The notes beneath the pieces were generated by a model. That model worked only from the letters and a program-made list of their open reading frames with translations, was not told where the DNA came from and ran no database searches. From a virus (Duplodnaviria > Heunggongvirae > Uroviricota > Caudoviricetes), in the IMG/VR virus record IMGVR_UViG_2737471857_000007, positions 1 through 15,126 of that record: DNA of 15,126 bases; one strand, 5' to 3'. Position numbers and translations under genes: made by a program. This document shows, in pieces, positions 979 to 2,069 of this stretch (within the stretch, counting starts at the first letter, position 1; every line of letters starts with the position of its first letter).

Positions 979-980
979 CG

Positions 981-1030
981 GGCATTACAGCAGCCCTTCT
1001 GTGTGAGGGGCTGCGATAATGCCTGTTTTA
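981..1030 (+). terminator. imperfect hairpin (copy A of a duplicated ~40 bp element), probable terminator of the 679-978 gene
   Basis: GCATTACAGCAGCCC can pair with GGGCTGCGATAATGC (13 of 15 positions) around an 11-nt loop, starting 3 nt after the stop codon and followed by CTGTTTTA. A second copy lies at 1815-1854. Confidence 0.45.
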
Positions 1031-1036
1031 AGGGGA

Positions 1037-1072
1037 TTGCAACGTAATTACTGATTCCATACTAACTATTAA
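1037..1072 (+). promoter_or_regulatory. candidate sigma70-like promoter for the moron (weak)
   Basis: TTGCAA at 1037-1042 with AT-rich -10-like hexamers (CATACT / TACTAA) 15-17 nt downstream, about 30-40 nt upstream of the moron start. Motif match is poor; this is a guess. Confidence 0.2.
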
Positions 1073-1098
1073 AATTGAGTGTCAATAGAGGTATTATT

Positions 1099-1608
1099 AT
1101 GTCTCGTTTATGTTTTTCTGAGAGAATCAGTATTATGATTACATACGATGATATCAAGGCCAAACGAGATACTTTAAAAAAAACACAAAGAGAATATGTT
1201 CAAACAATCAGGCAGGCAGCGAAGCAGTTAATAGATAATTATAAAGCCTCACTGGATGTTTCTGGTAAGTTTTGGATAAATATTCTTGGTGAACAACAGG
1301 AATATGTGTATATAACACAAGGTGGAAATTATTGTGAGCCAGAAGATCTGATAGTAGAGCTTCATGGAGGGGGTCGTTTTTCCTTAGTGACAGTAATTGA
1401 CGATGATCCAAGAGCATTTGTTTCAGTAAATAGCGATATTTCAATATATATCGAAAAAGAACATTTGACAGTATTTGTAGATGGATATGGAAGAAAAACA
1501 TTCGATTATGTAGATTCTGAAAAGAAATTTAATGAAATAAGTGATTTCATCAAAGACAGTGTTCTCTTGTCTTTAGATAGATTAGATTTTATCAGTACTA
1601 CTGAGTAA
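1099..1608 (+). CDS. low-GC moron protein of unknown function (~169 aa, acidic, no obvious transmembrane segment or signal peptide)
   Basis: ORF 1075-1608 in the six-frame track. Preferred start is ATG 1099, with AGAGG at 1087-1091 seven nt upstream. Base composition is visibly AT-rich (roughly one-third GC by eye) against a ~50-55% GC backbone. It is followed 13 nt later by a canonical intrinsic terminator. No family recognised by eye. Confidence 0.6.
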   Translation: MSRLCFSERISIMITYDDIKAKRDTLKKTQREYVQTIRQAAKQLIDNYKASLDVSGKFWINILGEQQEYVYITQGGNYCEPEDLIVELHGGGRFSLVTVIDDDPRAFVSVNSDISIYIEKEHLTVFVDGYGRKTFDYVDSEKKFNEISDFIKDSVLLSLDRLDFISTTE

Positions 1609-1620
1609 TATGTTTATTTC

Positions 1621-1652
1621 ATGTAAAACCCCGCTTTGCGGGGTTTTTATTG
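1621..1652 (+). terminator. rho-independent terminator (A-tract, CCCCGC / GCGGGG stem, T-tract), potentially bidirectional
   Basis: AAAACCCCGC-TTTG-CGGGGTTTTTATTG: a 6-7 bp GC stem with a 4-nt loop, flanked by an A-run 5' and a T-run 3', immediately downstream of the moron stop. Confidence 0.7.
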
Positions 1653-1663
1653 TTATCCCTAAA

Positions 1664-1682
1664 CCACCTCCCTAGGAGGTGG
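1664..1682. repeat. perfect 8-bp inverted repeat CCACCTCC-CTA-GGAGGTGG
   Basis: Read directly from the sequence; sits 12 nt after the terminator. Function unknown (possible protein-binding site or second hairpin). Confidence 0.5.
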
Positions 1683-1814
1683 TGATTGATTATCCGCAAA
1701 AAAATTTGTGGGAACTAAAGGTGGCAGGTTAATCACCGCACTGATTGACTGCAAGCCACAATACTCACGCATTAAAATTAGCGATCAGCATGTTCGCCTG
1801 ATTCGTGAGAAACA

Positions 1815-1854
1815 GGCATTACAGCGATCCTTCAGTGAGGGGCTGCGATAATGC
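1815..1854 (+). repeat. copy B of the duplicated ~40 bp hairpin element
   Basis: GGCATTACAGC..AGGGGCTGCGATAATGC shares the 11-nt 5' end and 17-nt 3' end with copy A at 981-1022; the centre is diverged. Together the two copies bracket the low-GC moron. Confidence 0.55.
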
Positions 1855-2069
1855 AACACAGGAATAAAAATCGGCAGGGAAATCCGTTAAAGATATGCCG
1901 GTGGCGAAAGGATGCCAATGGCTCTTAACCTAACTCGATGTTTCGTTGAAAGCAATAAATCATGTTGCTGGAATGTGAATGAATGTTGTTTCCATGATGC
2001 GTGTCATGTTATGCGCATCCGATATGCGAACCATTCCCATTTTCACGGGTCCTTTCCAGAACCTGAAAT

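Follow-up and report, generated by a model that had tools for sequence, protein, structure and literature searches.

A probable single-gene moron of low G+C content between two copies of a palindrome in a lambda-like prophage of Escherichia coli

Morons are defined as DNA that a phage carries in excess of its close relatives, with a deviant G+C content and a promoter and terminator of its own, and that is expressed from the repressed prophage (Cumby et al. 2012, PMC3594210). Here we analyse a candidate in the window, that is, the whole stretch of 15,126 nucleotides of the virus record IMGVR_UViG_2737471857_000007, which is the late region of a lambda-like prophage of E. coli. The candidate is an open reading frame (ORF) for a protein of 169 amino acids (aa) at 1099..1608 on the + strand, in the cassette region 979-1860, where it lies between two copies (A and B) of an imperfect palindrome. 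Extra DNA, deviant G+C content and an own terminator are all found here. Our preferred reading, held with moderate confidence, is that the ORF is a foreign single-gene moron, and that the two palindromes came from out-of-register recombination between two collinear lambdoid genomes. On this account the locus is a case of ordinary phage mosaicism, and the flanking palindromes are a by-product of recombination.

Among the described systems, several resemble this locus in part. The lambdoid morons, such as the HK97 gene 15 element and bor and lom of lambda, are likewise extra DNA with deviant G+C content, a terminator and a single gene between essential modules. With lambda bor the cassette also has in common the place between Rz and cos, and we take this lysis-to-cos position to be the slot holding bor on the lambda map. 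In lambda, bor is on the strand opposite to the late operon, whereas the moron studied here is on the late-operon strand, and its protein has no relation in sequence or fold to Bor, Lom or HK97 gp15. According to the module theory of Susskind and Botstein, and reportedly also to the work of Clark et al. in 2001 on HK620 and P22-like phages, short conserved boundary or linker sequences stand at the mosaic joints of lambdoid phages. The palindrome resembles these in being a short conserved sequence exactly at a module boundary with unrelated flanking modules, but it differs in being an asymmetric palindrome of 41 bp that is sharply delimited on either side. Integron cassettes with their attC sites also place imperfect hairpins beside promoterless or short single-gene units with variable cargo; the present locus differs in having no R''/R' cores and no intI, usually one hairpin per locus, and cargo that is not bounded by two sites. 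Finally, a genuine left-end relic of an insertion sequence (IS) of the IS200/IS605 family lies at 1644-1690, and the palindrome is, like the hairpins of this family and of PATE and REP elements, imperfect and strand-asymmetric. However, it is unrelated to the IS ends, is not dispersed, and shows neither left-end/right-end pairing nor tnpA.

The low-GC gene and its variable slot

The ORF at 1099-1608 has a G+C content of 0.324 (0.229 at third codon positions, GC3), compared with 0.523 for the window and 0.49-0.57 for the neighbouring backbone genes. Over the 15 kb, the 510-nt segment of minimum G+C content starts at 1041, with 0.318 against a mean of 0.524 and a standard deviation of 0.051, i.e. 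about 4 standard deviations below. The codon-usage distance to the backbone is also largest for this ORF. The original prediction, which was made from the letters of the window without database searches, had described the ORF as sharply AT-rich, with a plausible ribosome-binding site (RBS) and a strong intrinsic terminator, and all three descriptions hold. The AT-rich leader (1023..1098, + strand) contains a promoter-like site and a Shine-Dalgarno sequence, and the G+C content of 979-1098 is 0.41. The Shine-Dalgarno sequence AGAGG at 1087-1091 ends 7 nt before the ATG at 1099, and a sigma-70-like site matching in 9/12 positions (TTAAAA-17-TATTAT) is found at 1069-1097. In addition, the right arm of the palindrome at 1012-1020 (also 1844-1852) reads TGCGATAAT. 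This is similar to an extended -10 element (TGnTATAAT) directed rightwards, to the sequence behind the hairpin, and judged by its letters alone it could be a lysogen promoter for the moron. Behind the gene, a Rho-independent terminator on the + strand (1625..1652, with the stem at 1625-1647 plus a T-run) has a 10-bp stem with 6 GC pairs, followed by TTTTTATTG. In a string search, the terminator string is confined to cassette-bearing contigs.

The whole region is present in 1 of 5426 complete E. coli genomes, namely RM9088, with 99.8% identity. Many other genomes have both flanks at ~95% identity and a single hairpin, without the intervening ~834 bp, which are the exact repeat-to-repeat interval; this supports the moron label. 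Given the deviant composition, the own terminator and ~834 bp absent from ~95%-identical relatives, the earlier proposal of horizontally acquired cargo at a lambda bor-type slot is upheld. In one such order, the E9 type, the upstream 98-aa gene is followed by one hairpin bearing the loop of copy A and then by the right flank of copy B, while further relatives have other material 3' of the single hairpin. For hairpin-bearing phages with Nu1 terminase, the spacer from the hairpin to Nu1 measures 259-1523 nt and contains nothing, a minus-strand Zn-ribbon ORF, a 125-aa ORF, an 81-aa ORF, a K88-type fimbrial gene, or the moron. Since this content varies between phages, the hairpin-to-Nu1 interval is a variable cargo slot. 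On the question, raised originally, whether relatives hold different cargo between the two repeats, the cargo does differ, but the other cargo has a single hairpin upstream and none downstream. The K88-type fimbrial subunit gene, seen in L064, lies 382-1185 nt after the hairpin (Pfam PF02432, E 2.6e-31).

Origin of the repeat-flanked segment

Copy A (977..1027, core 981-1022, + strand) is an intact imperfect hairpin, and copy B (1815..1854, + strand) is degenerate. The pattern GGCATTACAGC...CCTTC-loop-GAGGGGCTGCGATAATG is found at 981-1021 and 1815-1853 with 0.00 expected in 200 shuffles, and 20 nt, GTGAGGGGCTGCGATAATGC, are identical between the copies, which agrees with the two ~40-bp hairpins noticed originally. 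Across more than 180 other phage loci sampled the palindrome is single-copy, and two + strand copies are seen only in cassette-bearing loci. The right repeat extends beyond the part recognised at first, into a decayed 35-aa gene of phrog_8025 at 1708..1812 (+ strand, PHROG E 3.4e-11). Its intact counterpart, MWKPTGDKLITALIDGKPQYLRIEMSGQHVRLICE, has a PHROG E of 5.6e-22 and its own RBS, AGGAG; in other phages the intact 35-aa gene stands 3' of the spanin genes and always ends with TGAGTAAC, then the palindrome. In the window, both the ATG and the RBS of this gene are gone and its stop is mutated from TAA to AAA, so that the frame continues to 1851. Judged from the sequence, copy B is a 3' appendage of the decayed phrog_8025 gene. 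As intact phrog_8025 genes always end with the palindrome, the repeat consists of common 3' ends (last codons, stop and palindrome) and not of cassette termini. Of the two roles once offered for the duplicated hairpin, a recombination scar is therefore right in spirit, whereas a cassette-exchange site does not fit a hairpin that is single-copy elsewhere and whose copy B sits on a decayed phrog_8025 gene. Copy B is decayed further in the divergent locus L109, and its right flank CAACACAGGAATAAAAA is common to E9, L060, L115 and L123. We also considered whether 1708-1810 is what remains of the 3' part of a long allele of the gene upstream, and dropped this because intact independent 35-aa genes with their own RBS exist.

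Two loci, L115 and L125, are like one of the supposed parents (Y below): they have spanin genes, a different low-GC gene of 87 aa, a homologous terminator 3' of it, the intact small gene and the palindrome, which in L115 is followed by the same right flank as that of copy B. Their homology to the window extends from ~1585 to 1900. The 87-aa gene (867-1130 in L115 and 936-1199 in L125, in coordinates of the oriented sub-regions; G+C content 0.41) has no PHROG match, and looks like an alternative cargo in a parent-like architecture. Under out-of-register recombination, a parent X would have given everything through the 98-aa gene and its junction palindrome (copy A), and parent Y the cargo gene, the terminator, the small gene, the palindrome and the cos-proximal DNA. 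The two would have joined at the 3' edge of X's palindrome, the edge where all other mosaics join. The product would have had two palindromes, and its redundant right unit (small gene and copy B) would then have decayed. An IS200/IS605 element would have inserted later, just after the terminator, and have been mostly deleted afterwards, probably removing the RBS and ATG of the small gene. Recombination within the 20-nt identity of the copies would regenerate the E9-type empty arrangement. In the lysogen, transcription would start from a weak promoter in the AT-rich leader or in the right arm of the hairpin and would be stopped by the gene's own terminator, and in lytic growth the moron would be read through by Q-antiterminated late transcription. 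If this is correct, the locus is an instance of a segment that became flanked by repeats through an out-of-register exchange at such a site and is thereby open to later deletion; these findings do not overturn the current picture of phage evolution.

The IS relic (1644..1690, + strand) comprises ~45 nt with 94-96% identity to an intact IS left end, including the subterminal hairpin at 1663-1683; nothing of the IS body is left. What looks like a second hairpin behind the terminator thus belongs to an IS left-end relic, which had gone unnoticed in the original prediction. An intact copy of the IS is found in strain CUPF09, where tnpA matches NF033573 (3e-45) and there are 9 matching places (full copies or fragments), and left-end fragments are common on plasmids. 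At the cassette only the left-end relic is present, with no IS right end and no tnpA; it lies downstream of the moron and points away from the moron gene. Homology to the IS extends no further than GTGATTGAT at 1690, which leaves ~18 nt up to the remnant of the small gene, and an insertion after the terminator followed by deletion would account for the lost start of the small gene. The IS left end comes directly after a rho-independent terminator plus TTTTTATTG in three independent contexts (the window, CUPF09 (L188) and plasmid p2 (L189)), with a different terminator in each, which suggests that the IS targets the 3' sides of terminators. An IS3-family IS (HTH_Tnp_1 plus rve) also lies between the cassette and cos at 5883-7096 of L134 (AP025747.1), and ISs seem to find a landing zone in the lysis-to-cos spacer.

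The distal end of the moron gene deserves separate mention. The 9-mer ACTGAGTAA at 970-978 and 1600-1608 closes both the 98-aa gene and the moron ORF, as was originally pointed out. In the moron protein the match to PHROG goes as far as residue 164 (nt ~1590), and the homology to the L115 block begins at ~1585, so the last moron codons may derive from the resident slot and not from the incoming gene. The 9-mer may have arisen by chance, or may mark a joint formed by microhomology near 1585-1608. To see whether it was such a joint or a target-site duplication, we searched for the 98-aa gene, ACTGAGTAA and the terminator in direct succession, and found only an unrelated chance match.

Several points weigh against the preferred reading. 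Neither a parent X nor a parent Y with this exact gene was found, so that we infer the order of events. By its sequence, the E9-type arrangement may be the product of a deletion between the copies or equally the ancestor, and the empty site could thus be ancestral rather than a deletion derivative. The out-of-register account does not explain the common 9-mer. In the complete genome RM9088 (L001), the A8 homopolymer at 1176-1183 of the moron ORF is A7; the resulting frameshift, which explains the 100-aa coding sequence annotated there by PGAP, could be a real inactivation or a homopolymer sequencing error. L109, the most divergent copy, has 7 substitutions in the ORF, 5 of them changing amino acids, and this excess means that recent purifying selection on the ORF is not demonstrated. 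As sequence and fold searches with the protein are negative, the function of the moron is inferred from context and general features alone. Two further points concern expression, namely that promoter-like sites are not above the level of shuffled sequence (4 against 5.0 expected), and that the moron and all homologues with context examined are co-oriented with the late operon.

These last two points are in favour of a late-only accessory gene, which would be expressed by Q-antiterminated read-through and have a lytic-phase role, for example in anti-host-defence or in the timing of lysis or packaging; the genes so oriented lie between Q and holin, between lysis genes and cos, and between head/neck-side genes and sheath. 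Still, a strong intrinsic terminator directly 3' of the gene is typical of insulated morons (PMC3594210), AT-rich leaders usually offer sigma-70 start sites, and the moron is dispensable in many close relatives. We regard a late-only gene as rather unlikely. Another explanation accepts the moron and changes its arrival: the moron and its terminator would have entered a pre-existing tandem (98-aa gene, hairpin, small gene, hairpin) by illegitimate recombination, possibly aided by the IS200-family element. Both hairpin-terminated genes do occur separately in many phages and the IS relic abuts the small gene. Strain 401651 (L003 1126-1518) has a 130-aa allele, an in-frame fusion of the 98-aa gene with a phrog_8025-like C-terminal module, which shows that the two coding units can adjoin. 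However, among the sampled loci there is no two-hairpin locus without the moron, and terminator, small gene and hairpin already form one block behind other cargo in L115 and L125, which fits block transfer better. We therefore give simple insertion only a small chance.

The palindrome at the module boundary

The palindrome is found in at least 119 IMG/VR loci in each of three scans and in 310 of 5426 E. coli genomes, at 1-6 places each with a median of 1, and also in prophage regions of Citrobacter braakii and Salmonella. Every locus inspected is prophage or phage DNA. It connects at least 13 different contexts upstream with at least 26 downstream, the latter including HNH endonuclease genes, several terminase small-subunit genes, cos-proximal DNA and cargo, and the flanking sequences diverge 1-2 nt from the palindrome on both sides. 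So far as such comparisons of sequence reach, the palindrome marks the boundary of lysis and packaging modules in many Enterobacteriaceae lambdoid phages, and it is a concrete example of lambdoid mosaics joined at one precise site.

As RNA, copy A folds with -37.0 kcal/mol on the + strand (z -7.8) and -30.0 on the minus strand, while copy B, with three changes in its left arm, reaches -16.8 kcal/mol (z -3.6). The palindrome keeps its asymmetry, which consists of a 2x2 internal loop (CA/GA) and, on the + strand, a single G.U pair. Among the stem variants, C-to-T changes that retain G.U pairing on the + strand predominate, in searches that each fixed one arm and gave counts too small to test covariation. 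The fold bias towards the + strand and the G.U-keeping variants hint weakly at a role in the late transcript. In strain 401651 the hairpin variant is a nearly perfect palindrome, with the right arm CTGCTGTAATG instead of CTGCGATAATG.

Comparison with known elements is largely negative. The terminator scan did not call the palindrome, and copy A is followed only by GTTTTA; as a T-run is absent after the palindrome in most contexts, it is not a general terminator. Nor is it a dispersed REP or PATE element, the median being one copy per genome. The attC cores RYYYAAC and GTTRRRY are absent, the left flanks being GAGTAAC and GAGAAAC and the right flanks GCCTGTTTTAAGG and GCAACACAGG. No integrase, transposase or other recombinase gene occurs within ~5 kb of the cassette, and the genes within ~5-6 kb are those for toxin, holin, endolysin, spanin, Nu1, terminase, portal and protease. 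The lack of both attC core motifs and an integrase shows that the palindrome is not attC-like. Rfam gave no family at the gathering threshold and only terminator-like noise at E <= 1, and a literature search for the exact sequence of the palindrome and for boundary sequences found nothing specific.

We attach a low probability to the idea that the palindrome, GGCATTACAGCAGCCCTTC-loop-GAGGGGCTGCGATAATGC, is an active element that focuses swaps of modules and cargo, with the cargo as a lysogenic-conversion or anti-defence factor. Were it so, the palindrome would be a folded-strand site, for example one on the late transcript that RNase III or another enzyme processes, or a hairpin in the DNA that a nuclease or recombination system recognises or breaks; precise swapping would be focused on the lysis/packaging boundary of Enterobacteriaceae lambdoid phages; and the phrog_5091 cargo would be a previously uncharacterised factor of phages with subtilase cytotoxin (SubAB) and LT-II toxins. 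A true cassette system, in which the hairpins are functional recombination sites that exchange cargo (attC-like, or folded single-strand sites for HUH or tyrosine enzymes), could draw on the conserved sequence, asymmetry and internal loop of the palindrome, on its very sharp boundaries with many different sequences joined at each edge, on the variable cargo of the slot, and on the nearby relic of a single-stranded DNA transposon (IS200/IS605). Nevertheless, two copies occur in this one lineage only among the hairpin-bearing loci sampled, other slot cargo has a hairpin upstream and none downstream, and copy B is tied to a pseudogene and decaying. Moreover, neither copy is flanked by RYYYAAC or GTTRRRY cores, integrase and transposase genes are missing within ~5 kb, and the IS hairpin is unrelated in sequence to the palindrome. 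The chance of a cassette system is thus slim.

The 169-aa protein and its neighbourhood

The original prediction found no family for the protein. In fact it matches the phrog_5091 hidden Markov model (HMM) with E 2.3e-27, residues 13-164 aligning to positions 2-160 of the 164 in the profile; what stands of the claim is that phrog_5091 has itself no assigned function. A phmmer search against 1.84 billion cluster representatives gave 41 relatives, 11 of them at E <= 1e-10, and named phrog_5091-type homologues come from Xenorhabdus, Providencia, Morganella and E. coli. The protein is 25-42% identical to members outside Escherichia, and the motifs ITY.DI, Y..SL, W, PYV, TV.DD.PRGG and C..IKD are kept in the family alignment. 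The N-terminal extension MSRLCFSERISI (12 aa) is common only to the closest homologues, which have Val at the position of Met13 in the window, and this extension supports the start at 1099. No homologue was found in plasmids, and a phage collection gave one, which is distant. As to genomic context, the moron is the sole phrog_5091 member seen in the lysis-to-cos slot; homologues lie between Q and holin in Xenorhabdus prophages and in phage CharmingMan, and in another prophage between head/neck-side genes and the tail sheath gene. No conserved partner gene was seen among the homologue contexts examined.

The protein is acidic (pI 4.85, GRAVY -0.33), and no signal peptide or transmembrane segment is evident by reading of the sequence alone, without a predictor. 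An AlphaFold2 model from a 14-sequence alignment reached a pLDDT of 85.6, while a single-sequence model was poor (pLDDT 41). The former has a long N-terminal helix, an antiparallel sheet and a C-terminal helix, and a Foldseek search of the PDB and BFVD with it gave no match at E <= 0.001. No significant match came from sequence-profile searches of the protein against Pfam, NCBIfam and PDB or from scanning 35 family members with Pfam, and there was no Pfam match to Lambda_Bor in the protein. Also, no defence-system HMM of PADLOC-DB matched it up to E 1. The exclusion, defence or virulence functions first suggested for such cargo thus have no database match in their favour. The gene opens a small uncharacterised phage family, phrog_5091, whose fold is predicted with confidence and is unmatched. 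From its context, the protein most likely works by itself in the cytoplasm as a binding protein in an accessory role: soluble and acidic, it would bind a target of host or phage origin and serve as an accessory factor of the exclusion or anti-defence type rather than as a structural, lysis or packaging component.

The exact 169-aa protein occurs in 58 assembly blocks of public assemblies, and the strains of CP057154.1 and AP025754.1 are examples with the intact cassette. The layout of the cassette locus is the same in all 10 places inspected, and the 882-bp cassette is 100% identical in 5 of these 10 prophages. Subtilase cytotoxin genes (S8 peptidase plus B subunit) are carried by 8 of the 10, LT-II genes by one, and neither by one. 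The moron is a conserved and intact accessory gene in prophages with subtilase cytotoxin or LT-II enterotoxin genes, and may reasonably be put forward as an exclusion, anti-defence or host-modifying factor of pathogenic E. coli. That the ORF is a relic without function, or an artefact of annotation in AT-rich junk DNA, as the frameshifted copy in RM9088, the mostly amino-acid-altering changes in L109 and the lack of a known function or domain might suggest, is barely credible for a family conserved across genera with invariant residues and consistent length, with a confident fold prediction and an ORF that is intact and identical in dozens of assemblies. In the cassette prophages, the toxin genes (SubAB or LT-II) adjoin the holin genes upstream, in the Q-to-lysis moron slot, at 1-529 in L001, at ~500-2000 in L130-L139 and at 1757-2897 in L133. 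In L134, ORF6N and AraC genes occupy the Q-to-lysis slot where the others have toxin genes.

The genes around the cassette are those of a lambdoid late region. Upstream are Rz/Rz1-type spanin genes at 18-543, and then the 98-aa gene at 682..978 (+ strand), the final gene on the lysis side, which ends ...VVTE* (ACTGAGTAA). It is a short allele of phrog_1935 (PHROG E 5.7e-60, profile positions 1-98 of 116) and is annotated as hypothetical in RM9088, E9 and phiP27. Downstream, the packaging module starts with a Nu1-type small terminase subunit at 2263..2811 (+ strand, Pfam PF07471, E 8e-85), and Nu1, large terminase, portal, protease and head genes follow in order 3' of cos. The approximate cosN, a context marker at 2075..2086, was placed by alignment with lambda and phi80 ends. 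Positions 23-86 of lambda J02459 align to 2098-2161 of the window and positions 1-77 of phi80 to 2075-2151, the phi80 record beginning with the 12-nt cohesive 5' extension. With cosN at ~2075-2086, the cassette region 979-1860 is at the extreme right end of the virion chromosome. A 78-aa ORF at 1979-2215, listed as a hypothetical protein in RefSeq relatives, is probably no real gene because it spans cosN. In addition, an 18-nt inverted repeat at 2176-2193 and 2229-2246, with 94% complementarity and a 35-nt spacer, stands immediately 5' of Nu1, and presumably corresponds in position to a similar inverted repeat in cosB of lambda.

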